DNA of 64,000 bases from an uncultured Holophagae bacterium (lineage in GTDB: Bacteria; Acidobacteriota; Thermoanaerobaculia; Thermoanaerobaculales; Sulfomarinibacteraceae), in contig CAVQXZ010000001.1 in assembly GCA_963718055.1 (NCBI GenBank), positions 848,983 to 912,982 on the forward strand, written 5' to 3'. Under the pieces are notes generated by a model. The model was not told the DNA's origin. It did no database searches and saw only the letters and a list, made by a program, of their open reading frames with translations. The number at the start of each line of letters is the position of its first letter. Position 1 is the first letter of the stretch. A program made the translations under genes and the position numbers. Shown here one piece after another: positions 1,041 through 62,491 of this stretch.

Positions 1041-1253
1041 CACTCTGTCTCCTTCGTGGTCGATTGGCCGGCACACGGTGTTGAATGGGGGCCGGGTCGC
1101 ACAGTGACACGGCCCACCGTGAAAGCCGGAACAATCCAAGGTCGAATCGTGGGACTTCTGCGCCGCGGTGTCAATAGGATCCGGGGGATAGGGGCTGAGG
1201 GCCAGGGGTTAGGCCCGCGCCCCCTTCCGCTTCCGCGCCCGCTTCCGGATGCT

Positions 1254-1439
1254 TTGTAGCGCAGCCTTCGAGGCTGCATGTTGTGGCGCAGCCATCCTGG
1301 CTGCAGCTGGGTTCGAGGCAGCCTGGAAGGCGCTACCCCACAAGAAAACCGCCCCGGTTTCCCGGGGCGGTCGTTGTTGTAGCGCAGGCATCCTGCCTGC
1401 CTTGTAGCACAGGCTTGTAGCGCAGGCTTCCAGCCTGCA
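1254..1439. repeat. Cluster of REP-like 25-nt hairpin units (TTGTAGCGCAGSC-N5-GSCTGCA)
   Basis: Units start at 1254, 1280, 1376, 1401 (truncated) and 1414, with an inverted variant near 1310-1335. Each has a GTAG/GTGG head followed by a 6-bp stem and 5-nt loop (GCAGCC ttcga GGCTGC; GCAGGC atcct GCCTGC). Confidence 0.7.
1341..1371 (-). terminator. Rho-independent terminator downstream of the 1455..4322 gene
   Basis: 10-bp GC stem ACCGCCCCGG / CCGGGGCGGT (1348-1357 and 1362-1371) with a 4-nt loop. On the minus strand it is followed by TTTCTTG. Confidence 0.7.
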
Positions 1440-5701: not shown

Positions 5702-5712
5702 CTCTGACCGCC

Positions 5713-22405: not shown

Positions 22406-22484
22406 GAGCGCGAGGGGCATGGGCCCCTCGACGAGCGACTGGAGGCGGACTGCAGTGGGATTCGCTCTCGCTGGCACGGTCCGC

Positions 22485-28816: not shown

Positions 28817-28854
28817 GAGAACAAGCGAACAAGCCTTCACAGAGGGGGGACACC

Positions 28855-29883
28855 ATGAAGAGCCCGCGGCCCGCGTGTCGGTTGGTGGCGCTTCTCGGGA
28901 TCGGTGCGGGTGTGCTCGCAACGCCGGTCGGTGCGCAGGGGTGCCCGGAGCTGGTCGGCTCCTACGGCACGCCGGGGGTCGCCTACGTCGTCGCGGTAGC
29001 CGGCTCCTACGCTTATGTGGTGGGCTACGCCGCCGGCCTGCGGGTGATCGACGTCTCCAACCCCGCGGCGCCGTTCGAGGTCGGCTCCTACGACACGCCG
29101 GGTTTCGCCTACGGCGTCGCCGTTGCCGGCTCCTACGCTTATGTGGCGGACGAGGACGCCGGCCTGCGGGTGATCGACGTCTCCAACCCCGCGGCGCCGT
29201 TCGAGGTCGGCTCCTACGACACGCCGGGGTGGGCCCTGGGAGTCGCCGTTGCCGGCTCCTACGCTCATGTGGCGGGCTACCACGCCGGCCTCCGGGTCGT
29301 GGACGTCTCCAACCCCGCGGCGCCGTTCGAGGTCGGCTTCTGCGACACGCCGGGGTACGCCTTCAGCGTCGCCGTTGACGGCTCCTACGCCTACGTGGCG
29401 GACGATTACGTCGGCCTGCGCGTGATCGATGTCTCCAACCCCGCGGCGCCGTTCGAGGTCGGCTCCTACGACACGCCGGGGAACGCCTATGGCGTCGCCG
29501 TTGACGGCTCCTACGCCTGCGTGGCGGACGGGTACTACGGCCTGCGGGTGGTCGACGTCTCCAACCCCGCGGCGCCGTTCGAGGTCGGCTCCTCCGACAC
29601 GCCGGGGTACGCCTGGGGCGTCGCCGTTGCCGGCTCCTACGCCTACGTGGCGGAAGACCTCGCCGGCCTGCGGGTGATCGACGTCTCCGACCCCGCGGCG
29701 CCGTTCGAGGTCGGCTCCTACGACACGCCGGGGAACGCCTACGGCGTCGCCGTTGACGGCTCCTACGCGTACGTGGCGGATGGGACCGTCGGCCTGGAAG
29801 TCCTGACCAGCTGCGAGGGCCTCCTCTTCCACGACGACTTCGAGTCCGGCGACACCTCGGCGTGGAGCGCGACGGTGCCGTAG
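28855..29883 (+). CDS. LVIVD-repeat beta-propeller protein (seven 42-aa blades) with the C-terminal tag
   Basis: Signal peptide [29 protein letters not shown]. The repeated unit is [39 protein letters not shown]. Ends [24 protein letters not shown]. Confidence 0.9.
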
Positions 29884-29920
29884 GCTGTCGGACACCCCAT
29901 TCGTAAGCGTGGAGGTAACC

Positions 29921-30325
29921 ATGGCTTCTGGCAGACGGCGCTTGCCCTCCTCATCGGAAGAACCCGTTCTATGGCTGCTGTACTGGACACCGCGAGTGCT
30001 CTGCATCCTGTATGCCGCGTTCATCAGCATCTTCGCAGCGGACGTCTTCGGTGGGGGCGTAGGCTTCTGGCAGACGGCGCTTGCCCTCCTCATCCATCTC
30101 ATCCCGACCTTCCTCATGGTCGCGGTGCTTGTCGTCTCCTGGCGCCGTGAGTGGATCGGAGGAGTGGTGTACATCGCGTTGGCGGCGCTGTGGGTCATCT
30201 GGGCGTGGAACAAGCCTTTCTTCGGATGGGTGCCGCTCCTCCTGATAGCGGGGCCCCTGGTGGTGACCGGCGTGCTCTTCCTGCTCAACTGGCGTTACCG
30301 CAAGGAGCTTCGCCCCACCGCCTGA
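29921..30325 (+). CDS. Small four-TM membrane protein of unknown function
   Basis: ATG 29921 with GGAGG at 29911-29915. Hydrophobic segments are VLCILYAAFISIFAADVF, ALALLIHLIPTFLMVAVLVV, VVYIALAALWVIWAW and LLLIAGPLVVTGVLFLL. Confidence 0.6.
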   Translation: MASGRRRLPSSSEEPVLWLLYWTPRVLCILYAAFISIFAADVFGGGVGFWQTALALLIHLIPTFLMVAVLVVSWRREWIGGVVYIALAALWVIWAWNKPFFGWVPLLLIAGPLVVTGVLFLLNWRYRKELRPTA

Positions 30326-30481
30326 GCTCGAGCGCAAGCACCGAGGGGCGACGAACCGCGCCGACGAGGCTCTCAGGCGATCGCGGACCCACGACCCCAA
30401 CGTGAACTGACCGCCAGGCGCGGCAGGCTGCGCTGAGCCGCGCGCACAATCAAATCCGCACATTGTCCGCATGTTTTCCTG

Positions 30482-30510
30482 TTGACTTTCGAGTTATCGC
30501 GACCCACATT
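30482..30510 (+). promoter_or_regulatory. Putative promoter of the second (decayed) LVIVD gene
   Basis: TTGACT (30482-30487), N17, CACATT (30505-30510), followed by GAGTGCA. Confidence 0.4.
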
Positions 30511-30548
30511 GAGTGCAAGCTAACAAGCCTTCAGACGAGGGGGACGCC

Positions 30549-31260
30549 ATGAAGAGCCCGCGGCCCGCGTGTCGGTTGGTGGCGCTCCTGGGGATTGGTG
30601 TAGGTGTACTCGCGACGCCAGCGCTCGCGCAGGACTGCCCAGCGTTCGTTGGATCTGTCGAAATTGAAACGGGGGTGGTTTACCCCAGAGGGGCCGTTGC
30701 GGTATCCGACGGCTATGCATACGTTGCAGCCAACTCGGCGGGACTGCGAGTGATCGACGTGAGGATGCCGTCGACACCGATAGAGGTCGGCTCTCTCGAT
30801 ACCCCGGGTGATGCCATGAATCTGGCGGTCTCCGGAAGCCACGTCTTCGTCGCGGATGGCTCCAGCTTCAGCACGCGTGTGATCGACGTGAGCATACCGT
30901 CTGCGCCGGTTGAGGTTGGGGTCATCGACATGGCGTACAGCCCGAGGGAGTCGACGAGTTGCGTGAGCGACTACGCGTACGGTCGCGGAAGGCTTCCTGG
31001 CCTGGGATTGCATGTCATCGACGTGAGCTCGCCCTCGGCCCCGGTGGAGGTTGGCTTGATCGACGCGCCAGGGTCTCGCCAGGGGTGTCGCGGTGTCCAA
31101 CGGTTACGCCTATGTCGTGCGAGTGACTGGGGCAAAAGATTAGCAGTCTCCACCGCTGATTGACGTCAGCACGCCCTCGGCTCCGGTCGAGATCGGCTTC
31201 GCCGATATTGCGCCGAGCCGCGATGGCCCCCTCCCCATCTCCCTGTTGACAATCCCTTAG
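30549..31260 (+). pseudogene. Decayed LVIVD-repeat paralog (frame shifts, internal stop, no C-terminal tag)
   Basis: The N-terminus [36 protein letters not shown] is nearly identical to the 28855 gene, including its upstream leader. The repeats degrade after about 31070: GLARGVAVSNGYAYVV is in another frame and ends at TAG 31140, and a further [17 protein letters not shown] blade lies in yet another frame up to TAG 31258-31260. Confidence 0.7.
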
Positions 31261-31274
31261 CCGGGACACAGATT
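31246..31274 (+). promoter_or_regulatory. Putative promoter of the third LVIVD gene, embedded in the tail of the pseudogene
   Basis: TTGACA (31246-31251), N17, CAGATT (31269-31274), followed by GAGAGCA. Confidence 0.45.
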
Positions 31275-31310
31275 GAGAGCACGGTAGCAATCGGCAGAAA
31301 GGGGAAACCC

Positions 31311-32356
31311 GTGAGCAGCCACATGCCCGTGACCCACGTGGTGGCGCTCGTCGTGATCGGAGTGTCTGTACTTGCGGTGCCGGCGCTTGCAGACTGCCCA
31401 GAGTTCGTGGGGTGGGTTGACACTCCGGGCAGCGCCCGCGGCGTTGCCGTTTCGGGCAGCCGCGCCTACGTCGCGGACGGGGAGGAGGGTCTTCGCGTGA
31501 TCGACATTGGCAACCCCTCGGCCCCGGTAGAGGTCGGCTTCGTCGACACACCGGGCGCCGAGGACGTCGCGGTATCGGGCGGCTACGCGTACGTCGCGGG
31601 GGGGGGGGCCTTCGGGTGATCGACGTGAGCGTGCCGTCTGCTCCGGTGGAGGTGGGATTCCTCGGCACTTCGGGGTCCGCCGTGGACGTTGCGGTGTCGG
31701 GCAACTACGCATACCTCGCCGACTGGACGCCAGGCTTTCGGGTGATCGACGTCAGCACCCCCTCAGCCCCGGTGGAGGTGGGATTCCTCGACAATCCCCC
31801 TTGGGCCGGGGGCGTCGCGGTGTCGGGCAGCTACGCGTACGTCACGTACGGCTGGGTTTCCAATTACTTTTGCGTGATCGACGTCAGCATGCCGTCGGCC
31901 CCGGTGGAGGTGGCTGTCCTCGAAACTCCCGGTTGGCCCCAGGCCGTCGCGGTCGAGGGCGGCTACGCGTACGTCGTGGCGTGGGAGGAAGTCCCTTGCG
32001 AGTCAGGTCTCTCTGTGATCGACGTGAGCAATCCCTCGGCCCCGGTGCAAGTAGGGTTTGCCGATACTCCGGGTGTCCCCCCCCTCGCCGTCGCGGTGTC
32101 GGGCAGCTACGCGTACGTCGCGAACGGGGAGGATGGTTTCCGCGTGATCGACGTGAGCAACCCCTCGGCCCCTGTGCAAGTAGGGGTTGCCGATACTCCG
32201 GGTGTCGCCCTCGACGTCGCGGTATCGGGCGGCTACGCGTACCTCGCCGACTCGTCCGCCGGTCTCGCCGTCTTCTTGGAGTGCCCGCTCGGGTGGGTGT
32301 TCGGGGACGGTTTCGAGTCCGGCGACACCTCGGCGTGGAGCGCAACGGTGCCGTAG
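31311..32356 (+). CDS. LVIVD-repeat beta-propeller protein with the C-terminal tag; interrupted by an 11-G homopolymer (31598-31608)
   Basis: ORFs 31311..31619 and 31616..32356 are two halves of one repeat protein. The first ends ...[17 protein letters not shown] inside the G-run; one more G would read ...[17 protein letters not shown]. Signal peptide [20 protein letters not shown]. Ends [24 protein letters not shown]. Confidence 0.8.
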
Positions 32357-32784: not shown

Positions 32785-32986
32785 TTGCGCCGTGACAAGC
32801 TGGACTTCGCCGTGTGCCCGGCTTCGCCTTTGGCTTCCGGCTTCGCGTGCCGCTTCGCCGTGACAAGTCGCCGTGACAAGCCAGCTACGCCGTGTGCCCG
32901 GCTTCGCGTGCCGCTTCGCCGTGACAAGTCGCCGTGACAAGCCAGCTACGCCGTGTGCCCGGCTTCGCTTTCAGCTACGCCGTGGC
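32785..32986. repeat. Tandem array (61-bp period, about 3.3 copies) rich in CGCCGTGACAAG / CGCCGTGTGCCCGG iteron-like words
   Basis: CTACGCCGTGTGCCCGGCTTCGCGTGCCGCTTCGCCGTGACAAGTCGCCGTGACAAGCCAG recurs at 32885 and 32946, with a longer variant from about 32805. The 12-mer CGCCGTGACAAG occurs five times. Confidence 0.8.
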
Positions 32987-33021
32987 ATTTCCTTTCTCGG
33001 CCGCCGGCCGAGAAAGGAAAT
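32987..33021 (-). terminator. Perfect 16-bp hairpin immediately 3' of tRNA-Lys
   Basis: ATTTCCTTTCTCGGCC gcc GGCCGAGAAAGGAAAT (32987-33002 / 33006-33021). It abuts the tRNA 3' end. There is no clear U-tract. Confidence 0.5.
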
Positions 33022-33093
33022 GGGCCGTCCGGGATTTGAACCCGGGACCACCGGATTAAAAGTCCGATGCTCTACCAGCTGAGCTAACGGCCC
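33021..33093 (-). tRNA. tRNA-Lys (anticodon TTT)
   Basis: The reverse complement reads GGGCCGTTAGCTCAGCTGGTAGAGCATCGGACTTTTAATCCGGTGGTCCCGGGTTCAAATCCCGGACGGCCCA. It forms a cloverleaf with anticodon loop CTTTTAA. CCA is not encoded. Confidence 0.95.
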
Positions 33094-37666: not shown

Positions 37667-37890
37667 CGTGGCCTCCAGTTGGAGCACGATACACAATTGA
37701 AACATTCATGTCAATACCTGAATCTGAAGATTCTTCTGGAGCCGACTGTTGCATTCACGAAACAACTTGGAGGACGAAACTCCGAGATGGGTGCCCGTCG
37801 GGGCCGAAGCCCCCGGTACTTCGTACCGCATTGGTTCTTGGGGCGGGTGTGGTGGGCGGAGGCGGGGACGGACGGCGGCCGTGAACTCCT

Positions 37891-37994
37891 CGTCAGGATG
37901 CGCGCAGCGCATCCATTGCGATCGTGTGGGGCAGGGGCCAAGCACAACCACTCCACCAGGAGCGCACACAGGGGCTTATGCCCCACACGATCGC
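37891..37994 (+). repeat. Copy A of a structured dispersed repeat of about 105 nt (palindrome GGATGCGCGCAGCGCATCC plus a long GTGTGGGGCA...TGCCCCACAC hairpin)
   Basis: Its reverse complement aligns along its full length with 57715..57828 (e.g. GTGTGGGGCA, CAGGAGCGC(G)CACAGG, GCCCCACAC and the 19-nt palindrome at 37896-37914). Confidence 0.75.
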
Positions 37995-38001
37995 AAAGCA
38001 A

Positions 38002-52557: not shown

Positions 52558-52905
52558 GGGGGCGTCCAGGGTTCGACGGGGGACAAGTCCGGCTGTCGGC
52601 AGCGTGTCGAGGTCCACCCGCTCGTATCAGGGTGGAACAACACAACAGCCAACAGCAACTACGCTCTGGCCGCGTAAGTCGGCCACGTCGCTCCCGAGGC
52701 TCCGCCCGTCGGCCTGGGTTCGGCGCTGCTTGACGGGCTGGGTCGCCGCGAAGCCCGGGCGCGGTGACCGAGAACTCACGGGCTGGCCCTGCGGAGCGGT
52801 TGCCCGCTGACCGACCGCGGGGCGAGATCAACTAGCGGGCTGCGCACGGAGAAGCCGCCGGCCGGAGTCCCTCGGACGTGGGTTCGATTCCCACCGCCTC
52901 CACCA
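52558..52905 (+). ncRNA. ssrA: tmRNA (SsrA); encoded tag ends ...ANSNYALAA-stop
   Basis: The 5' end GGGGGCGTCCAGGGTTCGACGGGG pairs with the 3' end ...GGACGTGGGTTCGATTCCCACCGCCTCCACCA (acceptor stem with G3:U, T-arm, CCA). The internal ORF reads GCC AAC AGC AAC TAC GCT CTG GCC GCG TAA. Confidence 0.95.
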
Positions 52906-54348: not shown

Positions 54349-54906
54349 GCAGGCGCGTCCTCCTCATCCTGTTGGCGGCGCTGGTTGCTGTCGCGGTCCT
54401 GGTGTGGGTGCTGCGCAGCGGACCCTCCCGCATTGCCCTGCAACGCCGAAACGGCTGAGCTGCGGATCCCGCCGACCCCCACGCCGGCCCCGACCCAGCG
54501 GATCATGCTGCTGTTCGCCGGCGCCGACGGCCAGCTGCACCCCGAGCTGCGGGAGGTGCCGCTGCCGGCCGAGGTCCACGAGCGGGCACGGGTGGTGGTT
54601 CGCGAGCTGCTGGCAGGGCCGACCGCCGGCCTCGCGCCGGTGGTGCCCTACCCGGCCGAGGTCAGCGCCGTGTTCGTCGACCAGTCCGGCCTCGCGTTCA
54701 TCGACATCACCGCGCCGCCCACGCCGCTTCAGGGCAGCAACATCGAGCTGATGCTGGTCTACGGGGTGGTCGACTCGGTGCTGCTCAACTGCCCGGAGCT
54801 GCGGGCGGTGCAGATCCTGTTCGGGGGCGCCGAGGTGCCAACGCTGACCGGTCACCTCGACCTGTCGAAGCCGCTCGTGCTCAACCGGCGGTTCATCGCC
54901 TCATGA
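54345..54906 (+). CDS. GerMN-domain protein; probable frame break between the signal anchor and the domain (about 54415-54445)
   Basis: ATG 54345 overlaps the amidase stop (ATGA) and encodes MSRRVLLILLAALVAVAVLVWVL, then stops after 37 codons. The GerMN body (RIMLLFAGADGQLHPELREVPLP...ARVVVRELLAGP...AFIDIT...LMLVYGVVDSVLLNCPELRAVQILFGG) is in the +1 frame (ORF 54385..54906). Confidence 0.7.
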
Positions 54907-55703
54907 TGGACTTCGCTCGACCCCCGATCGGCGTGTTCGACTCCGGCGTCGGTGGCCTGACGGTGCTGCAGGAGATCCGCAAGCGATTGCCGGGCGAGGA
55001 CTACCTTTACCTTGGCGACACGGCGCGCCTGCCCTACGGCAGCAAGTCCCCGGCGACGGTCCAGCGCTACGCCCTCAACGCCGCCCGGCACCTGGTCGGC
55101 CGCGGGGTCAAGCTGCTGGTGGTGGCGTGCAACACCGCGTCGTCGTACGCGCTCGACGAGGTCGCCGCCGCCTGCCCGGTGCCGGTGGTTGGCGTGGTCG
55201 AGCCGGGCGTGCGGGCGGCGCTCGCCTCGCGCGCCCGGCGCATCGGGGTCATCGGAACTGAGGGCACGGTGCGCTCGGAGGCCTACCAACGGGCGCTCCG
55301 GCGAGCCGACCCGACGGTCATGATCGAGGCGGCCGCGTGCCCGCTGTTCGTGCCGCTCGCCGAGGAAGGCTGGAGCGATCACCCGGTGACCGATCTGGTG
55401 GCCGAGCACTACCTGCGCCCACTGCTGGATCGTGGCATCGAGGCACTGATCCTCGGCTGCACCCACTACCCGTTGCTGCGGCCGTCGCTCGAGCGGGTGG
55501 TTGGGCGGGAGGTCCGCCTGATCGACTCCGCGACCTCGGTGGCCGCTTCCGTGGTCGCGGACTACGGCGGCATGATGGACACCTGGTACGGGGAGGAGGG
55601 CGACGTGCACCTGCAGCTCAGCGACGCCTCCGACCGCTTTCTCGGTATCACCCGCCGGATCCTCGGCCGCGACCCCGAGCACCTCGAGGTCGTGGACATT
55701 TAG
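54903..55703 (+). CDS. murI: Glutamate racemase
   Basis: IGVFDSGVGGLTVL, YLGDTARLPYG, LLVVACNTAS, and LILGCTHYPLL. Confidence 0.95.
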   Translation: MMDFARPPIGVFDSGVGGLTVLQEIRKRLPGEDYLYLGDTARLPYGSKSPATVQRYALNAARHLVGRGVKLLVVACNTASSYALDEVAAACPVPVVGVVEPGVRAALASRARRIGVIGTEGTVRSEAYQRALRRADPTVMIEAAACPLFVPLAEEGWSDHPVTDLVAEHYLRPLLDRGIEALILGCTHYPLLRPSLERVVGREVRLIDSATSVAASVVADYGGMMDTWYGEEGDVHLQLSDASDRFLGITRRILGRDPEHLEVVDI

Positions 55704-55830
55704 GAGCGGGTAGGGCATAGGCCCCTCGGCGCACGCGGGTCGTAGGCCTCGGGGTGTGCGTGAGGCGTCGCGGTCGCTGGCTGGCCTACGCCCCACGCGC
55801 GCCGAGAAGGATGCGCTGCGCGCATCCAGA
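55701..55830 (+). repeat. Copy C of the structured repeat, starting at the murI TAG stop
   Basis: TAGGAGCGGGTAGGGCATAGGCCCCTCGG...GCCCCACGCGCGCCGAGAAGGATGCGCTGCGCGCATCC has the same head, hairpin layout and 19-nt palindrome (55809-55827) as 57715..57828. Confidence 0.7.
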
Positions 55831-55947
55831 AGGAGTTCGTACCGCAGTGGCCGTCCGACAACAACTCGGTCAACCACGTCCGCCGAAAGGCGAATGAGGT
55901 ACGAACTTCTAGCCACTTTGCGTGAATTCTGAGAGTCCCCACTCCAT

Positions 55948-56053
55948 CACCAGGATGCGCGCAGCGCATCCTCGGGAGATTGGAGGGCAGAGGCCACGCG
56001 CACGCGACGGCATCTGGACAACGTTGGGGGGCCTATGCCCTTCAATCTCCTAG
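55948..56053 (-). repeat. Copy D of the structured repeat (inverted), starting at the vapC TAG stop
   Basis: The minus strand reads TAGGAGATTGAAGGGCATAGGCCCCCC...GGATGCGCTGCGCGCATCC (palindrome 55953-55971). Its TAG is the stop codon of the 56050..56463 gene. Confidence 0.65.
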
Positions 56054-56463
56054 CCGATCACTCGAAGGCCGCTCGCCCTGGCGGCGGTCGCCAGCGCCTG
56101 GTCGTGGGTCGCCATCACGAGCGGGGAACCGGCCTGCTCTGCCCACATCAGGGCGGTCGCCAGGTGGATCGCGTCGAGCGTTCCCAGGTTCGTGGGCATC
56201 GGCTGCGAGGCGCGGGCAAGCACAGGCCGTGTGAGCTCGACGATCTCGAGTGATTCGAGGAGTCGAAACACCGCCTCGCGGCGAATGGCGATTTCATGGT
56301 CGTCCAGCGACTCGACGAGCCGCAGCCGGTCGAGGGTGCGAAGGCACTCCACCTCGACGAGGCGCGAGGCGACGCCGTCCTCGATCTCGGCCCACTGCGC
56401 CAGGGCATCGGACTGGCCGAGCACGACCCGCAGCAGAACCGACGAGTCGAGATAGGCGATCAC
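56050..56463 (-). CDS. vapC: PIN-domain toxin (VapC family)
   Basis: MIAYLDSSVLL (first acidic residue), EVECLR, and LGTLDAIHLATAL (conserved D). 137 aa. Overlaps the antitoxin stop. Confidence 0.85.
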   Translation of the reverse strand: MIAYLDSSVLLRVVLGQSDALAQWAEIEDGVASRLVEVECLRTLDRLRLVESLDDHEIAIRREAVFRLLESLEIVELTRPVLARASQPMPTNLGTLDAIHLATALMWAEQAGSPLVMATHDQALATAARASGLRVIG

Positions 56464-56720
56464 CGGTTTCCCTGCCGCTCCTCGAGCAGGAGCTCGACCA
56501 CGTCCCGCTCGATCCCGAGCGGCGACGGCAGCGAAACCTCGCGCAGGCGGGGGGTGGACGGTGGCGGCCTGCGGATGACCAGCGGCGACGTGTCATCGTA
56601 CGGGACCAGGCGGGCGACCGGGGTGTTACGGTCGAGCACGGTGATCGACTCGCCACGGCGGACCCGCCGCAGGTGCTCGCTCAGGCGGCTCTTGAGGTCG
56701 GCGATTCGGACATCCGTCAT
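56460..56720 (-). CDS. Type II antitoxin (Phd/YefM-like)
   Basis: MTDVRIADLKSRLSEHLRRVRRGESITVLDRNTPVARLVP. It is 86 aa (or 88 aa from ATG 56726). 4-nt overlap with vapC. Confidence 0.75.
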   Translation of the reverse strand: MTDVRIADLKSRLSEHLRRVRRGESITVLDRNTPVARLVPYDDTSPLVIRRPPPSTPRLREVSLPSPLGIERDVVELLLEERQGNR

Positions 56721-56755
56721 GACCATAAGATAACCATTTATGGTCACAAGATCAA
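56721..56755 (-). promoter_or_regulatory. Putative promoter and inverted-repeat operator of the antitoxin-vapC operon
   Basis: The minus strand reads TTGATC (56750-56755), N17, TATCTT (56727-56732), only 6 nt before the ATG, which would give a possibly leaderless mRNA. The inverted repeat GACCATAA-N9-TTATGGTC spans 56721-56745. Confidence 0.35.
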
Positions 56756-56976
56756 TGCGGTCGATCCTGTGACCCGTCAGATGAGAAAAGGACGCCAGGA
56801 TCTGGGGTTGCGAATCGAGCCTGCCGTTGGGCGCCCGGTTTGGCGACGGTCCCAAGCTCCCAGCCCCGCAGGACGGGCGCGAGTCGGATCCGGAGGCCGC
56901 GGCTCGAGGTCGGCACGCGTTCGACGGATCGGCTGACGGCGGATCCTGTACCCTGTGCCTGAAGCGAGGACCGACC

Positions 56977-57717
56977 ATGAGACCAGACGGCCGCCGGTCT
57001 GACCAGATCCGAGCCCCCCAGATCACGCCCGGGTTCATCCGCTACGCCGAGGGCAGCGTGCTGTGGCGCGCGGGCGACACCATGGTGCTGTGCAACGCAA
57101 GCTTCGACGACAAGACCGCGCCCTTCCTGCGCGGATCCGGCGAGGGTTGGGTGACCGCGGAGTACGCGATGCTGCCGCGCGCCACCGACACCCGTGGCGA
57201 CCGCAGGCCGTCGGGCCGGTCGCAGGAAATCCAGCGGCTGATCGGCCGCGCGCTGCGCGCTGCGGTGCGCCGCGACCGCATGGGCGAGCGCTCGATCATC
57301 GTCGACTGCGATGTGCTGCAGGCCGATGGGTCGACGCGTACCGCGAGCGTGTCGGGAGGCTGGGTGGCGCTGGTGCTCGCTCTGGCGCGTCTCCACGAGC
57401 AGGGCGTCATGCCGGAGTGGCCGCTCGCCGCGCAGGTCGCGGCGGTGGCGGTCGGGGTCATCGGCGGCGAGGCGCGGGCCGACCTCGACTACGGCGAGGA
57501 TTTCGACTGCGACGTCGACCTCAACCTGGTCTACACCGCCGGCGGCAGGCTGGTGGAGATCCAGGGCACGGCCGAGGGCCGCCCATTCACGCGCGGCGAG
57601 CTCGAGACGGTTCTCGAGGTCGGCTGGGCCGGCGCCCAGCAGGTCCTGGCCGCCCAGCGTGAGGTCGTCGCACCCCGCCTGGATGAGCTCGGCTTGAGCT
57701 TCCCCACGGACCGGTAG
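56977..57717 (+). CDS. rph: Ribonuclease PH
   Basis: MRPDGRRSDQIR, AEGSVL, GWVTAEYAMLPRAT, and QADGSTRTASVSGGWVAL. Confidence 0.95.
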   Translation: MRPDGRRSDQIRAPQITPGFIRYAEGSVLWRAGDTMVLCNASFDDKTAPFLRGSGEGWVTAEYAMLPRATDTRGDRRPSGRSQEIQRLIGRALRAAVRRDRMGERSIIVDCDVLQADGSTRTASVSGGWVALVLALARLHEQGVMPEWPLAAQVAAVAVGVIGGEARADLDYGEDFDCDVDLNLVYTAGGRLVEIQGTAEGRPFTRGELETVLEVGWAGAQQVLAAQREVVAPRLDELGLSFPTDR

Positions 57718-57828
57718 GAGCGTGTGGGGCACAGGCACCTGTGCGCGCTCCTGATGAGGCCGTTGTGGTTGGCCTTTGCCCCACACGCTCCTCGGGATGC
57801 GCTGCGCGCATCCTGACGATGGAGAGTC
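57715..57828 (+). repeat. Copy B of the structured repeat, starting at the rph TAG stop
   Basis: TAGGAGCGTGTGGGGCACAGGCACCTGTGCGCGCTCCTGATGAGGCCGTTGTGGTTGGCCTTTGCCCCACACGCTCCTCGGGATGCGCTGCGCGCATCCTGACG. It aligns over its full length with the reverse complement of 37891..37994. Confidence 0.75.
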
Positions 57829-58009
57829 GCTTCTATGATCGATGGTGGAAGGTGAGTTCCTGCCGCGTTACCTAAGAACGCGCGCCCTTTCGTCAGCTCC
57901 ACAGATGAGCTGCCCTGTCAGCACACCCCTCGAGCGCCCACCCCCGGGGCTTGCGTGCGTGCCACACGTCGCTTACCGGCCCTCGGCGGCTGTCGAATCG
58001 ACGAATAAG

Positions 58010-58040
58010 AACGTACGTGATTAGACTGGACGTACGTACG
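58010..58040 (+). promoter_or_regulatory. Candidate operator: duplicated ACGTACGT palindromes upstream of the second antitoxin-vapC operon
   Basis: AACGTACGTgattagactgGACGTACGTACG read directly, followed by TAAGAT (58045-58050) and GGTGGAGG before the start codon. Confidence 0.35.
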
Positions 58041-58066
58041 GGACTAAGATATGCTCACGGTGGAGG

Positions 58067-58294
58067 ATGGCCATGGTGCTGACCGCCTCAAAGCTGCGGG
58101 AGAACATCTACCAGATCCTGGACGAGGTCCTGGAGACCGGGTTGCCTGTGGAGGTCCGGCGCAAGGGCAGAATGGTGAGGATCGTTCCGGCCGAGGCGGT
58201 GCCCAAGCTATCGCGGCTGCCGCGCCGCGACTTTCTGCGGGTCGACCCTGAGGCGATCGTCCACCTCGACTGGTCGGGTGAGTGGCGGCCATGA
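58067..58294 (+). CDS. Type II antitoxin (Phd/YefM-like)
   Basis: MVLTASKLRENIYQILDEVLETGLPVEVRRKGRMVRIVP. ATG 58073 has better SD spacing than 58067. The stop overlaps the vapC ATG (ATGA). Confidence 0.75.
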   Translation: MAMVLTASKLRENIYQILDEVLETGLPVEVRRKGRMVRIVPAEAVPKLSRLPRRDFLRVDPEAIVHLDWSGEWRP

Positions 58295-58671
58295 TCTACC
58301 TCGACACGCACGTCGTCGCCTGGCTGTACTCCGGTGACCTGGGACTCCTGCCGGAGGGGGTTCGCGACCTGCTGGAAGGAGAGGAGCTCGTCATCTCGCC
58401 GATGGTGGAGCTCGAGCTGCAGTACCTGTACGAGTCGGGGCGCACGACCCAGCCCGGGCGAGTCGTTGTGGACGCCCTCGACGGGGAGATCGGTCTGTCG
58501 CGGTGCGGGCTGCCCTTCGGCCAGGTGGTCGCGGCAGCGCTGGACCAGGGCTGGACGCGGGACCCGTTCGACCGGGTCATCGTCGCGCAGGCGCGCGCGC
58601 GCCGGCTGCCGTTACTCACCAGGGATCAGACCATCCGGGACCACTACCGCGAGGCGATCTGGATCGACTGA
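58291..58671 (+). CDS. vapC: PIN-domain toxin (VapC family)
   Basis: MIYLDTHVVAWL, ISPMVELELQYL, TRDPFDRVIVAQA, and LLTRDQTI. Confidence 0.85.
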   Translation: MIYLDTHVVAWLYSGDLGLLPEGVRDLLEGEELVISPMVELELQYLYESGRTTQPGRVVVDALDGEIGLSRCGLPFGQVVAAALDQGWTRDPFDRVIVAQARARRLPLLTRDQTIRDHYREAIWID

Positions 58672-58699: not shown

Positions 58700-58815
58700 C
58701 GGCTTCGTGCTCTGCACTACGCCGTGACGGGTCCGGCTTCCGGCTTCGCTCGCAGCTTCGCTGGGACACGTCGCCTTCCGGCACCGTCCCGCGGACTAGG
58801 CCGTGACAAGTCGCC
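58700..58815. repeat. Solo copy of the CGCCGTGAC / GGCTTCCGGCTTCGC repeat family seen at 32785..32986
   Basis: CTACGCCGTGACGGGTCCGGCTTCCGGCTTCGC ... GGCCGTGACAAGTCGCC shares several 10-16-nt words with the tRNA-Lys-adjacent array. It lies about 170 nt upstream of the tRNA cluster. Confidence 0.55.
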
Positions 58816-58986: not shown

Positions 58987-59063
<77 letters not shown>

Positions 59064-59087
59064 TCCCACCCCGAAGCGGAGAGCCAC

Positions 59088-59164
<77 letters not shown>

Positions 59165-59181
59165 GATGACGTCGCCGATGT

Positions 59182-59258
59182 GGTGGGCGTAGCTCAGTTG
59201 GTAGAGCACAGGATTGTGGCTCCTGTGGCCGTGGGTTCGATCCCCATCGCCCACCCCA
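59182..59258 (+). tRNA. tRNA-His (anticodon GTG) with G-1
   Basis: GGTGGGCGTAGCTCAGTTGGTAGAGCACAGGATTGTGGCTCCTGTGGCCGTGGGTTCGATCCCCATCGCCCACCCCA. The extra 5' G lies opposite C73. CCA is encoded. Confidence 0.93.
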
Positions 59259-59291
59259 GTTCTTTCGAAAGCCAGCCTCAGGCCACCATGT

Positions 59292-59368
59292 GCGCCCGTA
59301 GCTCAGATGGATAGAGCGTCAGACTCCGGATCTGAAGGTCGCTGGTTCGAATCCAGTCGGGCGTACCA
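59292..59368 (+). tRNA. tRNA-Arg (anticodon CCG)
   Basis: GCGCCCGTAGCTCAGATGGATAGAGCGTCAGACTCCGGATCTGAAGGTCGCTGGTTCGAATCCAGTCGGGCGTACCA. Anticodon loop CTCCGGA. CCA is encoded. Confidence 0.93.
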
Positions 59369-59379
59369 CTCTCCCCACA

Positions 59380-60561
59380 TCACGGGACCGCCGTGCTCCA
59401 GGCTGAGGTGTCGCCGGACTCGAAACCGTCGCTGAACAGAGGCAGCAGCTCGAGGGTGGCGCGCCGCGGCGGCAGCACCACCGGCCGGATGCCGTCATCC
59501 GCCGTGATCAGGAAGACGTCGACGCCGGGGAGGCCGGTCTCGGTCAGAGCCACCTCGTAGCTGCCGTCGCCCACATCGACGATGTCGCCGATGGTCGTGA
59601 CCTGGTCGCTCTCGGGCGCGTGCTCCACGTTGAAGGCCTGGACGCCGTGGCCGAGCAGCACGCCCTGCCAGTCCTTCAGCTCCACCCGCAGCGACCACTC
59701 ATTCCCTGGGTCGTCGATATCGGTGAAGGAGACCAGCGACGCGATGGCGTCGGGACGGCCCAGCAAGTCGAGGCGGGCGTCGTCGAACAGCGCCTGGAGC
59801 TGGAACACCGGATCGGGGGCCGAAGCTTGCTGGTAGGCGACGTTGAAGGCCATGAAGTAGTCGCCGTCGGCACAGCCGCCAGCATTGCAGACCGCGTCGT
59901 CAGTGTCTCCGAAGCGGGAGATCAGAATGTACCCGATGTGGGCGGATTTCTCGAAGCTGGGAGGCGGCGATCCACAGCCGGTCGGATTGCCAGGGTCGCA
60001 CGAGCAGCGGCCGTCGCCGCCCATGGAACGGGCTGCCTCCATGGCGGCCATCGTCCTCGCGGGAAGGTCCCCCGGCGTGTTGACGAAGGCGTCCTCGGCC
60101 AGGGTGATGACCGGGCTGCCCGTGAGCACATTTCCCTGGATCGCGTAGTGCACGCTGCCGATGCTCCCCACCACGCCCCCGGCGTACGCCCCGCAGCTCG
60201 CGCCGGTGTGGGTGGCCGACGTTCCGACCGTCGTCTCGGCGACGCCGTGCTGATGGAACTGGGAGGAGGGGAGGGCAATGAGCTGGGCGACGATCTCCTG
60301 CGCGGTCTGCCCGGCAAGGAAGCCGTTCCACATGATGAGGCGTCGCTGTCCCGTGCTGTCGACGTAGGACTGGGCAGCCCCGCCGCCCTTGCCGACGACG
60401 ATGGCCGGCGTCAACGCTCTGAGATCGTAAGAGGTCAGGCAGGTCGCCGAGGCGACCACGACCTCCTGGGTCTCCGCGTCGGCGGCCACGATCGACCAAG
60501 TCGCGCCAGCCGGTTGAGCAGCGAGCGCCGCGAGCGCCACGAACAGAGTCACCTGACGCAT
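59380..60561 (-). CDS. Secreted DUF1028-type Ntn-hydrolase-fold protein with an extra C-terminal domain and the tag
   Basis: ATG 60561 in ORF 59380..60675. Signal peptide MRQVTLFVALAALAAQPAGA, then TWSIVAAD (N-terminal Thr nucleophile pattern), GGGAAQSYV, and YAIQGNVLTG. Ends [25 protein letters not shown]. Confidence 0.75.
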   Translation of the reverse strand: MRQVTLFVALAALAAQPAGATWSIVAADAETQEVVVASATCLTSYDLRALTPAIVVGKGGGAAQSYVDSTGQRRLIMWNGFLAGQTAQEIVAQLIALPSSQFHQHGVAETTVGTSATHTGASCGAYAGGVVGSIGSVHYAIQGNVLTGSPVITLAEDAFVNTPGDLPARTMAAMEAARSMGGDGRCSCDPGNPTGCGSPPPSFEKSAHIGYILISRFGDTDDAVCNAGGCADGDYFMAFNVAYQQASAPDPVFQLQALFDDARLDLLGRPDAIASLVSFTDIDDPGNEWSLRVELKDWQGVLLGHGVQAFNVEHAPESDQVTTIGDIVDVGDGSYEVALTETGLPGVDVFLITADDGIRPVVLPPRRATLELLPLFSDGFESGDTSAWSTAVP

Positions 60562-60610: not shown

Positions 60611-62491
60611 CTAAGGGAACGTCGCGCTCCAGGTCGAGGTGTCGCCGGACTCGAAGCCGTCAGCAAAGACGCCACATTCGCGGAAGATCTCCATACCGCC
60701 GGGACCGACGACGATCACCTGCCCCTCCGCGGTGACGACACCATAGGCTTCGCGCAATGTCTGAGCGAAACCGATCTCGGAGGGGCTCACGGGTGCGGAG
60801 ACGTCGATCACTCGAAGTCCGGCCGTGTTGGCGGCGACGTATGCGACGCTGCCGGCGACCGCCACTCCGTATGCGGTGTTCTGCCACGAGATCAGGCCCA
60901 CCTGGACGGGGTCGGCGGGGTCGGAGATGTCGATCACAACCAGGCCGTTTCCGCCGTCGGCGACATACGCGTACGCCCCGCTGACGGCCACTCCCCAGGC
61001 GAAACCTAGGGTGTCGGCGTATCCCACCTCGACCGGTGAAAACGGCTCGCTCACGTCGATCACCCGCAGGCCGTTCAGGTAGTCGGCGACGTAGGCGTAG
61101 CCACCCGAGACAACCACGTCCATAGCGATGTTCGGAGTGTCAACGGCGCCCACCTCGATCGGGTTTGCCGGAACCGAAACGTCGATCACTCGCAGGCCAG
61201 CAGGGCCTTCCGCAACGTACGCGTAGCTGCCGGAGACGGCCACGCCTCGGCTCTCGCCAGGCGTGCCGACGTAGGTCACCTCGAAGGGGATCGAAGGTGT
61301 CGAGACGTCGATCACCCGGAGGCCGGCCGTGAAGCCGGCGACGTACGCGTAGGCGCCGGAAACAGCCACGTCCTCGGCCCATCCAACGGTGTTGATGAAG
61401 CCCACCTCGATGGGGTCCTTGGGCGTCGAGACGTCGATCACGCGCAGGCCATCACTGCGATCTGCGACGTACGCAAAGCCGCCAGAGCTCGTCACATTGA
61501 CGCCAGCCCCCTTGGTGTCGAGGAAGCTCAGCTCGAATGGGTTGGCAGGCGCCGAGGTATCGACCACCCGCAGCCCGTCATCGCCGTCAGCGACCCAGGC
61601 GATGGACCCTGAGACCGTGACGCCGAACGCGATGGCCCCCATGTCCAGCCAGCCCACCTCGACCGGGTTCGAGGGCGTGGACACGTCGAAGACGTGCAGG
61701 CCGGAGGTGCCATCAGCGATGAAGGCGAGGCTACCCGCGACAGCGACTCCCCTGGCCAGGTCCGGTGTGCTGTGGGAACCCACCTCGACGGGAGCCGAGG
61801 GATTGGTCACGTCGATCACCCGCAGTCCGGCGTTACCGTCCGCGACGTAGGCGTGGCCGCCGGCGACAGCCACGCCTGCCGCCCATCCCGGGGTGTCGAC
61901 GAAACCCACCTCGGTCGGATTGGATGGCGAGGACACGTTGATCACGCGAAGGCCCCCGCTGTCGTAATCTGCGACATAAGCGAAACTCCCCGAGACAGTC
62001 ACGCCTTGGCTTGTCCCTGGGGTGTCGACGAAGCCCACCTCGATCGGCGATGACGGCACGCTCACGTCGATTACGCGCAGGCCGTCGTTGCCGGCTGCGA
62101 CATAGGCGTAGCTGCCGTCCGTGGCCACGCCAGTGGCGTAATCCGGTGTCTGGATCGAGCCCACCTCGATCGGTCTTCCTGGCGTCGCGATGTCGACGAT
62201 GTACAGGCCTGCATAGCCAACCGCGACGTAGGCGTAGCCGCCGGCAACGGCCACACCAGTGACGCTATTCGGAAGCTCGACGTGGCCGACATACCGTGGC
62301 GCCTCGGCGTCAGATACATCGGCGACGTGCAGCACGAAGCCGCCGCCGAAGTACGCGTAGCTGCCGGACACCTCCACTGCTTGGGCCTCCCCGTATGGCC
62401 ACCGGCCGACCGGCTCCGGGCAGTCGTCCGCAAAGGTCGGGACCGCACAGGCCACGACGAGACAGGCGGCGAACTCGGCGATTCGTGACAT
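60611..62491 (-). CDS. LVIVD-repeat protein (about 14 blades, likely a double propeller) with the C-terminal tag
   Basis: Signal peptide MSRIAEFAACLVVACAVPTFADDC. Repeated [39 protein letters not shown] units. Ends [25 protein letters not shown]. Confidence 0.9.
   Translation of the reverse strand: MSRIAEFAACLVVACAVPTFADDCPEPVGRWPYGEAQAVEVSGSYAYFGGGFVLHVADVSDAEAPRYVGHVELPNSVTGVAVAGGYAYVAVGYAGLYIVDIATPGRPIEVGSIQTPDYATGVATDGSYAYVAAGNDGLRVIDVSVPSSPIEVGFVDTPGTSQGVTVSGSFAYVADYDSGGLRVINVSSPSNPTEVGFVDTPGWAAGVAVAGGHAYVADGNAGLRVIDVTNPSAPVEVGSHSTPDLARGVAVAGSLAFIADGTSGLHVFDVSTPSNPVEVGWLDMGAIAFGVTVSGSIAWVADGDDGLRVVDTSAPANPFELSFLDTKGAGVNVTSSGGFAYVADRSDGLRVIDVSTPKDPIEVGFINTVGWAEDVAVSGAYAYVAGFTAGLRVIDVSTPSIPFEVTYVGTPGESRGVAVSGSYAYVAEGPAGLRVIDVSVPANPIEVGAVDTPNIAMDVVVSGGYAYVADYLNGLRVIDVSEPFSPVEVGYADTLGFAWGVAVSGAYAYVADGGNGLVVIDISDPADPVQVGLISWQNTAYGVAVAGSVAYVAANTAGLRVIDVSAPVSPSEIGFAQTLREAYGVVTAEGQVIVVGPGGMEIFRECGVFADGFESGDTSTWSATFP

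Follow-up and report, generated by a model that had tools for sequence, protein, structure and literature searches.

The 64-kb stretch of DNA analysed here as a whole (hereafter the window) contains several copies of what is, on balance, probably a modular, non-autonomous REP/BIME-like family of mobile DNA of Thermoanaerobaculia/Holophagae-type Acidobacteriota, with insertion adjacent to TAG and movement probably due to an HUH enzyme. The family is a variant of the REP/BIME theme, for which the placement on stop TAGs is already known from Proteobacteria, and not a new kind of system. Its left junction is sharp and lies immediately 3' of TAG, without duplication, and the phenomenon of a repeat terminus that equals a TAG stop codon is extended here to Acidobacteriota (Thermoanaerobaculia).

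A unit of the family has a long imperfect hairpin H (~78 nt), in which pairing starts at the G of the flanking TAG. Next to H comes a perfect palindrome P of 19 nt (GGATGCGC-NNN-GCGCATCC), which is invariant, unrelated to H in sequence and size, and succeeded by TGACGA, AGAAGG and similar sequences. The basic unit measures ~97-100 nt, with a range of 94-102 nt among units, and the family overall spans 100-130 nt. The palindrome has four exact matches in the window (P1 to P4 in Table 1), each adjoining a long hairpin, versus a mean of 0.13 in shuffled sequences, none of which reaches four; the combination of the two structures, pointed out in an earlier note on this DNA, is thus real. All copies fold much more stably than their shuffled versions (z = -4.0 to -8.3; hairpin stability -55 to -80 kcal/mol), and the two strands fold equally well. 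The covariance-model search of the window reported only four strong copies (112, 92, 86 and 64 bits), and the tally for the 64 kb amounts to four intact copies, one decayed copy and one doubtful remnant. The family is modular, with variant hairpins H2 and Y and an optional 3' module X, and composite H-P-H' layouts, in which two hairpins face each other across one palindrome as do a REP and its inverted partner in a BIME, occur twice in the window (55701-55911 and 37824-37995) and in the related loci L046, L057, L063, L032, L048 and L040. The first 38 nt alone can form a hairpin of REP size, which is never the repeat unit by itself, and neither is P (19 nt). Membership in a known ncRNA family, considered earlier, finds no support in Rfam, where no match was obtained at gathering thresholds and relaxed thresholds yielded chance-level matches only.

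Table 1. Positions of the repeat copies, their modules and the associated genes in the window.
Feature	Position	Strand	Remarks
possible remnant (TAGGAGCTCGCACAGGGGCCCGTGCCCCCGCGCTCC)	11067-11130	+	at TAG stop of gene ending 11069; z = 2.3 only
PA-domain gene	21215-22405	+	ends with TAG, the first triplet of copy E
copy E, decayed	22403-22470	+	its TAG ends the PA-domain gene; head hairpin intact; 18.8 bits
degenerate Y-type hairpin, on the other side of P4 from copy D and turned towards it (ACTTCGTACCGCATTGG...GGCCGTGAACTCC)	37824-37895	+	weak match
copy D, short type	37896-37995	-	92 bits; P4 37896-37914; not on a stop codon
murI	54903-55703	+	ends with TAG, the first triplet of copy A
copy A, long type	55701-55827	+	TAG 55701-55703 is the murI stop
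copy A parts	head 55701-55726; H2 55727-55806; palindrome P1 55809-55827	+	
inverted sister-subtype hairpin Y (GGAGTTCGTACCGCA...GGTACGAACTTC)	55828-55911	-	starts TAGAAGTTCG on the minus strand; P1 in common
spacer, Y hairpin to P2	55912-55952		extra 90-nt insertion at left edge in L155
copy B, short type	55953-56052	-	TAG 56052-56050 is the vapC stop; 85.7 bits; P2 55953-55971
PIN/vapC	56050-56463	-	ends with TAG, the first triplet of copy B
RNase PH (rph)	56977-57717	+	ends with TAG, the first triplet of copy C
copy C, short type, near consensus	57715-57813	+	TAG 57715-57717 is the rph stop; 111.9 bits
copy C parts	long hairpin 57717-57792; palindrome P3 57795-57813	+	
X module, optional 3' extension (TGACGATGG.GAGT.GCTTCT.ATGAT.GATGG...GAGTTCCTGCC)	57814-57866	+	
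tail between X module and L151-matching sequence	57867-57931	+	no repeat match elsewhere

The Pfam analysis confirms the murI, PIN/vapC, RNase PH and PA-domain gene calls, and the abutment of the repeats on the stop codons of these four genes, reported in the earlier note, holds for each of them; only the start of the vapC copy had been misplaced by one position, at 56053. Copy C (folding -70.2 kcal/mol, z = -8.3) is followed by the X module, which is common to L003, L007, L025, L026, L029, L030 and L036 (the BLAST match with L036 reaches 57866). Copy A, 97% identical to a copy in the MAG PQAJ (L065), has a 26-nt head and then the other hairpin, H2 (CGGCGCACGCGGGTCGTAGGCC...GGCCTACGCCCCACGCGCGCCG), while copy B carries a compensated stem variant in its long hairpin (GGAGATTGAAGGGCA/TGCCCTCCAATCTCC); the closing stem GTGTGGGGCA/TGCCCCACAC, once described as common to all copies, is found in copies C and D and not in A and B. 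The region of ~115 nt with lower GC content between murI and vapC does exist, but it is itself a family member, the inverted Y hairpin (covariance-model match 55809-55911, minus strand, 47.6 bits), and the 11-bp inverted repeat described in it is present with matches at only 10 of 11 positions. In the sister subtype Y, GTACCGCA replaces GTGGGGCA, and this module also lies 3' of the palindrome in at least seven other loci (L019, L023, L032, L040, L046, L048 and L063). Copy D has a mutated head (TGCGATCG) with TGC instead of TAG and a compensated 18-bp closing stem, and is located ~55 nt downstream of an ATP-synthase-c gene (TGA stop), past that gene's own hairpin; the degenerate Y-type hairpin opposite to it gave a weak covariance-model match (37861-37914, plus strand, 20 bits). 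Copy E, first taken for a fragment consisting of the head only, does retain the head (22/26 bases, z = 5.6 versus shuffles), but is a decayed copy, in which GGGATTCGCTC may be what is left of the palindrome. Whether the sequence at 11067-11130 is a further remnant of the family is uncertain.

Beyond the window, at least 31 loci with copies were found in the MAG CAVWIJ01 and at least 12 in PQAJ01, both labelled Holophagae, and further copies are present in other Acidobacteriota and Thermoanaerobaculales MAGs. Between genomes the copies are 79-97% identical, compared to ~75% for the flanking coding sequence. Searches of viral contigs with the 19-mer returned no match. The idea that the copies are unrelated native terminator hairpins, alike by chance or convergence, has in its favour the fact that G+C-rich hairpins are common after genes and nothing else; it is refuted by the four exact 19-mers, by identities of 85-97% over 100-130 nt among unrelated loci and genomes, and by the presence and absence of the element among close relatives, and its probability is negligible.

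The association with TAG, in which a resemblance to REP elements had been seen before, is borne out by the analysis of 56 copies: the head reads TAG in 41 of them and is one base away in most of the others (e.g. TGG, CAG, TCG). When an ORF with a coding signature is required, an in-frame stop codon coincides with the start of the copy in 31 of the 56, and in five others a stop codon lies between -9 and +3 nt, which brings the stop-associated copies to 36/56, 31 of these 36 being in exact register. The proposed tabulation of stop-codon distances thus reveals a clear preference for abutment: TAG-headed copies sit on stop codons in 31 of 41 cases (76%), versus 113 of 2381 (4.7%) for all TAGs in the same DNA subjected to the same test, and in the syntenic locus L156 stop codons constitute 4 of the 33 TAGs outside coding sequence. 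Copies on stop TAGs are in excess ~5-fold over other non-genic TAGs and 16-fold over TAGs overall. The base that precedes TAG varies (C in 12, G in 9, T in 6 and A in 1 of 28 units), so that the tag appears to be TAG rather than GTAG, and the GTAG alternative suggested earlier is not supported.

Empty orthologous sites were compared for rph, whose orthologues were obtained by protein search and contig look-ups. Three element-free orthologues of 92-96% identity (L147, L148, L150) end in TAG, as does the more distant, syntenic and likewise element-free rph in L156, which makes four clean empty sites in total; in another element-free locus, L151, TAG is directly followed by GAGCGCCCACC, which matches the window from 57932 onward. 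As the empty sites end in TAG, this triplet was there before the element, whose insertion point is 0-5 nt 3' of it. The notion that the element "supplies or preserves" the stop codon can hence be kept for rph in its second part only. Three further loci (L149, L152, L153) carry the same rph insertion with differing internal deletions. No record corresponded to the exact RNase PH sequence of the window, and the metagenome scan with RNase PH returned one relative of 72% identity and others of 50-56%, too distant for the analysis of empty sites.

These data bear on the usual reading of "REP termini provide the stop codon", namely that the TAG is part of the element and is donated by it to the gene after insertion in any frame at or just before the native stop, with only in-frame survivors retained. 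The situation at murI and vapC gives it some support. The murI unit is present in the window, L155 (with a head as in copy A and an interior of the short type), L162 and L156, and the sole empty murI site, that of L154, has undergone rearrangement. The MurI protein ends VVDI in the window, L155 and L162, but has one residue more in L154 and L156 (ending VVDIS). Copy B at vapC is shared with L155, and vapC ends with TAG there and in the window; it is absent from L156 and L162, where vapC ends with TGA, and also from L154, where vapC ends with TAG. Additionally, copies that are not on stop codons keep TAG, or TGG, CAG or TCG, at this position, which suggests that the TAG either travels along or is always found at the edge. 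We regard the murI and vapC comparisons as ambiguous, and at these two sites the element may have brought its own TAG. As a general explanation, however, donation of the stop is unlikely: all four clean empty rph sites, that of the outgroup L156 included, have TAG at the same codon, L154 is element-free and yet has TAG at both murI and vapC, and insertion in random frames predicts many offset copies inside genes or just downstream of them, whereas 31 of the 36 stop-associated copies are exactly in register. Furthermore, TAG is used by roughly 12 of the ~42 genes in the window, and three TAG sites would coincide by chance in ~2% of cases.

The target site is not duplicated, and the ends of the element do not resemble each other. 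Among 29 TAG-headed units, TA follows the palindrome in one, TAG occurs within 6 nt of it in none, and the head 5-mer is repeated in one; in L156 the murI unit is followed directly by the native spacer, without TA or TAG. A candidate TAG...TAAG duplication at rph was rejected, as the similarity of the tail to the flanks of the empty sites is no better than in shuffles, and the GAGCG/GAGCC direct repeats at the junctions of rph in the window and of murI in L156 have no counterpart in 28 of 29 other units, for which reason we treat them as chance or as microhomology in a deletion. The loci L004 and L037 were dropped as a filled/empty pair, their divergence being too great to place the junctions. 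A classical TA-duplicating MITE with terminal inverted repeats (IS630/Tc1-like, GGAG...CTCC), whose insertion into the TA of a stop codon would regenerate TAG, might be suspected from the H-P-H' composites, which read TA-GGAG...CTCC-TA (window 55701-56052, L046, L057), and from a separate family Z in a related MAG, which behaves in this way at CTAG sites, stop codons included. Solo H+P units, however, have TA after them in only 1 of 29 cases and ends (GGAGCG.../...GCGCATCC) that do not form a proper inverted repeat, L156 has no TA between the palindrome and the vapC stop, and the reconstructed empty sites of the composites either lose both stops (L046) or need overlapping convergent genes, whereas in relatives murI and vapC are separated by a 35-nt spacer or by a whole gene. 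For solo units the TA-duplication reading is largely refuted, and overall we find it very improbable.

The pattern of substitutions in the stems is informative about the level at which the structure is maintained. Compensatory changes were found in 11 of 16 pairs of the long hairpin, compared to 2.6 +/- 1.3 in shuffles, with 0/500 reaching the observed value; 95.8% of the alignment cells are in paired state, and changes on one side only hardly occur. The stems change from one Watson-Crick pair to another with nearly no G-U intermediates, and the mismatches on the sense strand are 17 A.C versus 4 G.T. No T-tract follows any of the copies, and terminator-like sites are lacking in 55400-58300. 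Taken together, compensation without G-U, the decay of orthologous copies and the lack of T-tracts point to a constraint that acts on the folded DNA rather than on an RNA terminator, and, judging by the asymmetry of the wobble pairs, the strand that folds is more likely the complement of the one that has TAG 5' of the element.

The same observations apply to a functional 3'-UTR RNA element (a terminator, a block to exonucleases or a regulator of translation termination), for which selection on the RNA would be primary and mobility secondary. Such a role would agree with copies that are co-oriented with the upstream gene, start at its stop codon and form very stable hairpins, and the excess on stop codons over other non-genic TAGs would fit positive selection. 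REPs of E. coli stabilise the upstream mRNA, and Liang, Rudd and Deutscher are said to have found in 2015 that REPs within ~15 nt of a stop can stall ribosomes. On the other hand, the scarcity of G-U and the predominance of A.C mismatches are the reverse of what selection at the RNA level predicts, the two strands fold equally well, copy D and others are located away from gene ends, and the rph copies are deleted piecemeal and absent from close relatives, which makes a strong requirement unlikely. With no T-tracts in addition, the terminator or mRNA stabiliser proposed as one option in the earlier note receives no positive support, and we consider a primary role in RNA improbable.

We propose that the element moves as folded single-stranded DNA, and that an HUH enzyme of the tyrosine type (RAYT/IS200-IS605 superfamily), presumably encoded elsewhere in the genome, cuts and joins it beside the short flanking TAG. 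Insertions at the many intragenic TAGs would be removed by purifying selection. The surviving copies accumulate on TAG stops, where an insertion does not alter the protein and the 3' UTR then begins with the hairpins; effects on mRNA 3' ends or translation termination, if any, would be a by-product. With RayT of E. coli as the query, tblastn produced no credible match in the window or in 65 related loci (~5% of each related genome), the sole hit (L014) being inside a TPR/cNMP-binding protein, and the RAYT/IS200-like gene anticipated earlier was thus not found in these sequences; guide-target complementarity of the IS200/IS605 type was not identified either. This mechanism alone does not explain the excess on stop TAGs over other non-genic TAGs. 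True targeting of stop codons, with machinery that recognises more than the TAG trinucleotide, would account for both the 5-fold and the 16-fold excess, with a feature of gene ends, e.g. a native hairpin 3' of the stop, as a candidate cue, or alternatively single-stranded DNA exposed where transcription and translation terminate; we give it a rather slim chance.

Among known systems, the closest are REPs, BIMEs and REPINs. Like them, the family is dispersed in high copy number, palindromic, provided with a conserved TAG-containing 5' tag (unpaired in REPs), and found as single units or inverted pairs separated by linkers, with structure kept more than sequence. Both are located 3' of genes, in particular where two genes converge, and the tag is often the TAG stop: for GTAG REPs, the distance to the ends of convergent ORFs is <20 bp, and the TAG stops are in many cases provided by the REPs (PMC3733652), the supply of stop codons by GTAG REPs having already been reported (Di Nocera 2013). 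The differences are that the tag here is NTAG instead of GTAG, with the G of TAG already paired in the long stem, that the hairpin is ~78 nt instead of the 20-50 nt of canonical REPs, and that a second, invariant palindrome of 19 nt accompanies it in every case, with the extra modules X, H2 and Y. The host is a member of Acidobacteriota (Thermoanaerobaculia), no RAYT was found in the window and the 65 loci, and the association with stops is quantified and accompanied by empty sites with a pre-existing TAG.

The transposases of IS200/IS605 elements bind subterminal hairpins and cut beside a conserved flanking target tetranucleotide (PMC6006769). As in IS608 and ISDra2, the insertion is directly 3' of a short motif and in fixed orientation, without target-site duplication or terminal inverted repeats and with subterminal hairpins at both ends (PMC6006769, PMC8266576). 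The target here, however, is only 3 nt, no tnpA or tnpB is found nearby, and no guide tetranucleotides were identified. The end hairpins of IS608 are similar to each other, whereas H and P are unrelated, and the suggested folding of the opposite strand is a poor simple fit to the IS608 geometry. TIRYT elements ("TIRtrons") and HuH-Y enzymes of class 3 come from the same phylum (Di Nocera 2013; Quentin 2018) and include Y1 enzymes flanked by long or atypical structures, some with moderately abundant repeats; their motifs GGGGWSAS and 5' foot CnGA do not consistently match either our head (GGGGCAyAGG) or the bases that precede P, and the sequences covered here contain no such gene. Small structured repeats are also found among TA-duplicating MITEs (Correia/NEMIS, Nezha, IS630-derived) and in family Z; in TA-poor, G+C-rich genomes they often insert into the TA of stop codons and restore the stop, but they differ in the TA duplication and proper terminal inverted repeats that our family lacks and family Z has. 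ERIC/IRU and MIRU are repeats of 100-130 nt in transcribed intergenic regions, and in MIRUs the ends overlap with the stop and start codons of adjacent genes; neither resembles the family in sequence or architecture, and MIRUs are tandem and linked to the coding phase, while the lengths of our units are not restricted to multiples of three.

The way in which REP-like repeats spread has yet to be settled (PMC8266576). Compared to canonical 30-nt REPs, the family has the advantage of an alignable length and of filled, empty and decaying alleles of one and the same site in public metagenomes. If the targeting of stops is true, the ends of ORFs would be a built-in "safe harbour" for this mobile element, which could then serve as a tractable model for the spread of REP-like repeats. 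Should mRNA decay or termination depend on the hairpins, a common 3' UTR would be shared by hundreds of genes per genome. For annotation, the units mark true gene ends, break short-read assemblies and, where translated through, can be mistaken for 3' extensions of ORFs.

A few other candidates were considered and rejected. The locus L050 could be taken for an autonomous element, but a CDF transporter and an inorganic pyrophosphatase, and no transposase, lie between its facing palindromes; one transporter gene in this locus ends within a copy. A read-through or recoding signal (PYLIS/SECIS-like) does not agree with unit lengths of 94-102 nt, which are not multiples of three. In copy C the frame that begins at TAG is open for 33 codons, up to a TGA after the palindrome; this TGA is accounted for by the palindrome stem, which it lengthens (TCG...TGA). 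The AGGAG of the head was dismissed as a Shine-Dalgarno sequence of a mini-ORF, given a spacing to GTG of 1-3 nt and a frame that differs between the GGGCA and GGGGCA variants. A native overlap of a stop codon with a Shine-Dalgarno sequence, unrelated to the family, is present elsewhere in the window (TAGGAGGATCACCGTG at 9363).

The palindrome GGATGCGC-NNN-GCGCATCC occurs exactly four times in the window (37896, 55809, 55953 and 57795; shuffle mean 0.13), and a long hairpin precedes each of them in constant orientation. The repeat family that the earlier note had described at stop codons is confirmed with minor corrections. As single strands, the intact units A to D (see Table) fold with -55 to -81 kcal/mol (z of -4 to -8.3 relative to shuffles), and both strands are equally stable. 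In 4/4 genes (murI, vapC, rph and the PA-domain gene) the first triplet of a copy is the TAG stop codon; the copy of the PA-domain gene, at 22403, is decayed but still recognisable (z = 5.6). Copy D, located between the genes for ATP synthase c and an ECF sigma factor, does not belong to this set of four; its TAG is lost and it does not lie at a stop codon. In the unfiltered covariance-model scan of the entire window, no strong matches other than these copies were obtained. According to the same model (47.6 bits), the 'core' between murI and vapC belongs to a sister subtype: it is a hairpin in inverted orientation and has the first palindrome in common with copy A, and a weaker inverted sister hairpin is found across the palindrome beside copy D. 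The Rfam search of the copies revealed no match to a known ncRNA family, and no T-tract was seen 3' of any copy, which leaves the suggested terminator role unsupported.

Table. Repeat units, associated genes and further features (window coordinates, except for the Z family, which is located in MAG CAVWIJ01)
Feature	Position	Strand	Remark
Copy A	55701-55827	+	127-nt variant
Copy B	56052-55953	-	~100-nt unit
Copy C	57715-57813	+	~100-nt unit
Copy D	37995-37896	-	~100-nt unit
MurI gene	54903-55703		Pfam
PIN/VapC toxin gene	56050-56463	-	Pfam
RNase PH gene	56977-57717		Pfam
PA-domain protein gene	21215-22405		Pfam
Genes with common C-terminal end	22405, 26437, 29883, 32356	+	
Genes with common C-terminal end	1455, 60611	-	
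Sequence related to common C-terminal end	25298-25368; 59381-59439		
Z copies, outside window	L006 ~6530-6765; L015 ~2590-2830; L016 ~870-1105; L023 ~6890-7130		
Z copies, outside window	L025; L046; L064 ~1140-1380		

A scan with the 19-mer, using one genome per species, identified at least 65 loci, of which at least 31 are in MAG CAVWIJ01 and at least 12 in PQAJ01 (both labelled Holophagae). Among the matches listed, further loci come from Acidobacteriota and Thermoanaerobaculales/Thermoanaerobaculia MAGs, while the rest, which have no hairpin, match by chance; the proteins of the window group with Thermoanaerobaculales MAGs. Between genomes the copies are 79-97% identical, compared to ~75% for the flanking coding DNA. 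The family is modular: the long hairpin H (consensus TAGGAGCGTGTGGGGCATAGGCCCCTG...GGCCTCTGCCCCACACGCTCCTCG) is combined with the invariant 19-nt palindrome P, in the long type a different hairpin (H2) takes the place of the greater part of H, the subtype Y of H carries GTACCGCA/TGCGGTAC, and a 3' extension (X) comprises 30-55 nt. Layouts of the H -> P <- H' kind resemble the REP and inverted REP of a BIME. The murI sites of the window (55701-55827) and of the related locus L155 (1183-1281) have an unusual head in common (GAGCGGGT(A/T)GGGCA), but their interiors differ (H2 hairpin in the window, short-type hairpin in L155), which indicates that modules were exchanged in place. In another locus, L050, a minus-strand cation-diffusion-facilitator gene (4875-5798) terminates within an element copy (4799-4911), hence its final codons are element-derived.

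The units are non-coding (94 to 102 nt), and abutting a stop codon is characteristic of the family. With a strict test (>=60 open codons upstream, GC3 >=0.85, GC3 minus GC2 >=0.25), an in-frame stop codon was found to form the start of 31 of 56 copies and to lie within -9 to +3 nt in 5 more (e.g. TTC TGA followed by AGGAGCG, or ACC TAG followed by AGGAGCG). TAG is the first triplet of 41 copies and serves as a stop codon in 31 of them (76%), whereas the test is passed by only 113 of the 2381 TAGs (4.7%) that these loci contain; this supports the TAG specificity proposed earlier. In one syntenic locus of 20.8 kb for which genes were called, 4/33 TAGs outside coding sequence are stops. Copies away from stops start with TAG or its one-base variants (TGG, CAG, TCG), as expected if the triplet is selected only when used as a stop. 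Composites with stop codons at both ends bridge several convergent gene pairs (murI/vapC in the window, others in L046 and L057).

Contigs of close RNase PH orthologues (92-96% identity) allowed filled and empty gene ends to be compared. In L150, L147 and L148, and also in L156, which is syntenic but more distant, rph lacks the element and ends with AGG/AGC/AGT TAG, followed by common native sequence. In L151 the end reads GAC AGA TAG GAGCGCCCACCTCC... and what comes next matches the window from 57932 onwards (CCCCTC followed by GAGCGCCCACCCCC...), so the window contains 214 extra bases directly after TAG, with a junction that the shared GAGCG makes ambiguous over 5 nt. Since the element-free orthologues end in TAG, the TAG at rph is older than the element. 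At murI, TAG and then a unit are found in the window, L155, L162 and L156 (the last standing for six assemblies of one species); in L156 a native spacer of 35 nt and then the vapC stop come directly after the unit, and the right junction has neither TA nor TAG. In L154 both murI and vapC lack elements and end with TAG, but this is not a clean empty site because the locus is rearranged, with an extra gene (AAA_14/DUF4143) inserted between them. Without the element vapC ends with TGA in L156 and L162, and this comparison is ambiguous. Among 29 TAG-headed units, TA follows the palindrome in one, TAG occurs within 6 nt in none, and the head 5-mer recurs in one; there is no target-site duplication.

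This absence stands out against Z, a second repeat family of MAG CAVWIJ01 (~215-230 nt, termini GCCCGGATATCTCACC...GGTGAGATATCCGGGC), whose flanks (C-TA...TA-G) exhibit a TA duplication inside CTAG and which behaves as a classical IS630-type MITE. Z copies often adjoin TAG stop codons, and in L064, L006 and L016 the insertion lies within the TA of a TAG that heads an H unit. Thus, in these TA-poor genomes different mobile elements commonly land on stop codons.

The last three residues of RNase PH (window 57706-57714; L147-L153, L156) are variable (TDR, ADR, AEI, AES, ADL, TER, SER and others) at 92-96% overall identity. The rph junction of L149 reads GAC CTA TAA CCTA TAGGAGCG, as if another insertion or excision had occurred at TA. 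Two Phd/YefM-PIN toxin-antitoxin pairs are located on either side of rph (56050-56730 and 58067-58671), the downstream one being reduced to an antitoxin-like gene in L147 and L156. The murI-rph neighbourhood is a rearrangement hot spot.

The long hairpin has 16 pairs, and among 28 short units 11 of these pairs exhibit two-sided, pairing-preserving changes (shuffled expectation 2.6 +/- 1.3; observed level reached in 0/500), and the signal collapses in slid registers. One-sided (G-U type) stem changes are almost absent, and in an alignment of 40 copies from the window and related loci the stem mismatches, read in the gene sense, comprise 17 A.C/C.A versus 4 G.T/T.G. Selection acting on the sense RNA would be expected to give the reverse bias, and this asymmetry, together with the scarcity of one-sided changes, suggests a constraint on the complementary DNA strand. 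At the rph end, one insertion has been eroded via three different internal deletions in relatives (L149, L152, L153). Altogether, compensation, few G-U changes, the A.C excess and the rph erosion suggest that the hairpins matter to the element, most likely as folded DNA in mobilisation, rather than to the host mRNA.

The units exhibit a short conserved left-flank motif predating the insertion, hairpins at both ends and a constant orientation, they lack target-site duplication and terminal inverted repeats, and their structure is kept via compensatory change. These features are hallmarks of single-stranded DNA elements mobilised by HUH tyrosine enzymes, namely IS200/IS605 transposases and REP-associated RAYTs (PMC6006769; PMC8266576). 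On the basis of these shared hallmarks we propose that a HUH tyrosine superfamily enzyme, encoded elsewhere, could mobilise the units as single-stranded DNA, and that selection would spare them where they are harmless, i.e. behind TAG stop codons, a position that leaves the ORF intact. Neither the window nor the 65 related loci yielded a HUH-type gene. Unlike in IS608, the two end hairpins differ from each other, the motif has 3 nt, and the opposite strand is the one suggested by the wobble asymmetry. Stop TAGs outnumber other non-genic TAGs at the copies by more than simple tolerance predicts; this may be due to harm from insertions in 5' regulatory regions, to an advantage of 3'-end positions, or to an additional determinant of the target.

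The phenomenon itself is already known: Di Nocera et al. reported GTAG-tagged REPs in >80 species, including REPs between convergent genes at <20 bp from both ORF ends, which often supply the TAG stop, and Acidobacteria Y1 transposases flanked by long inverted repeats (PMC3733652), while Quentin et al. described an Acidobacteria class 3 HuH-Y group with atypical flanking structures. Compared to GTAG REPs, this family differs in an architecture that joins a 78-nt hairpin to the invariant 19-nt palindrome and has exchangeable modules, in its NTAG tag (C 12, G 9, T 6 and A 1 preceding TAG in TAG-headed units), in host clade and in the strength of the stop-codon association, and it adds empty-site evidence for a pre-existing TAG. 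It appears to work like a REP; we do not class it as a strict REP because its size lies outside the definition, its tag conserves only the TAG of GTAG, and a RAYT link would be putative. We regard the H/P family as a new, well-marked variant of REP/BIME-type elements, of value for insertion junctions that are unusually clear for this class of repeats.

Elsewhere in the window, at least six genes, including those of PA-domain and LVIVD-repeat proteins, have their last 16-20 residues in common (72-86% DNA conservation), which looks like a putative sorting or anchoring tag. The LVIVD repeats (126 nt, 42 aa) form long arrays in several neighbouring genes on both strands (28827-32250, 60750-62390). 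A 41-nt motif (GGCTTCCGGCTTCGCGTGCCGCTTCGCCGTGACAAGTCGCC) is present in three copies with 61-nt spacing beside tRNA-Lys (33021-33093, minus strand; motif within 32832-32994) and in one copy (58735-58775) upstream of a tRNA-Pro/Arg/His/Arg cluster (58987-59368). The tmRNA gene (52558-52905; tag peptide ANSNYALAA) is positioned ~2 kb upstream of the murI operon.
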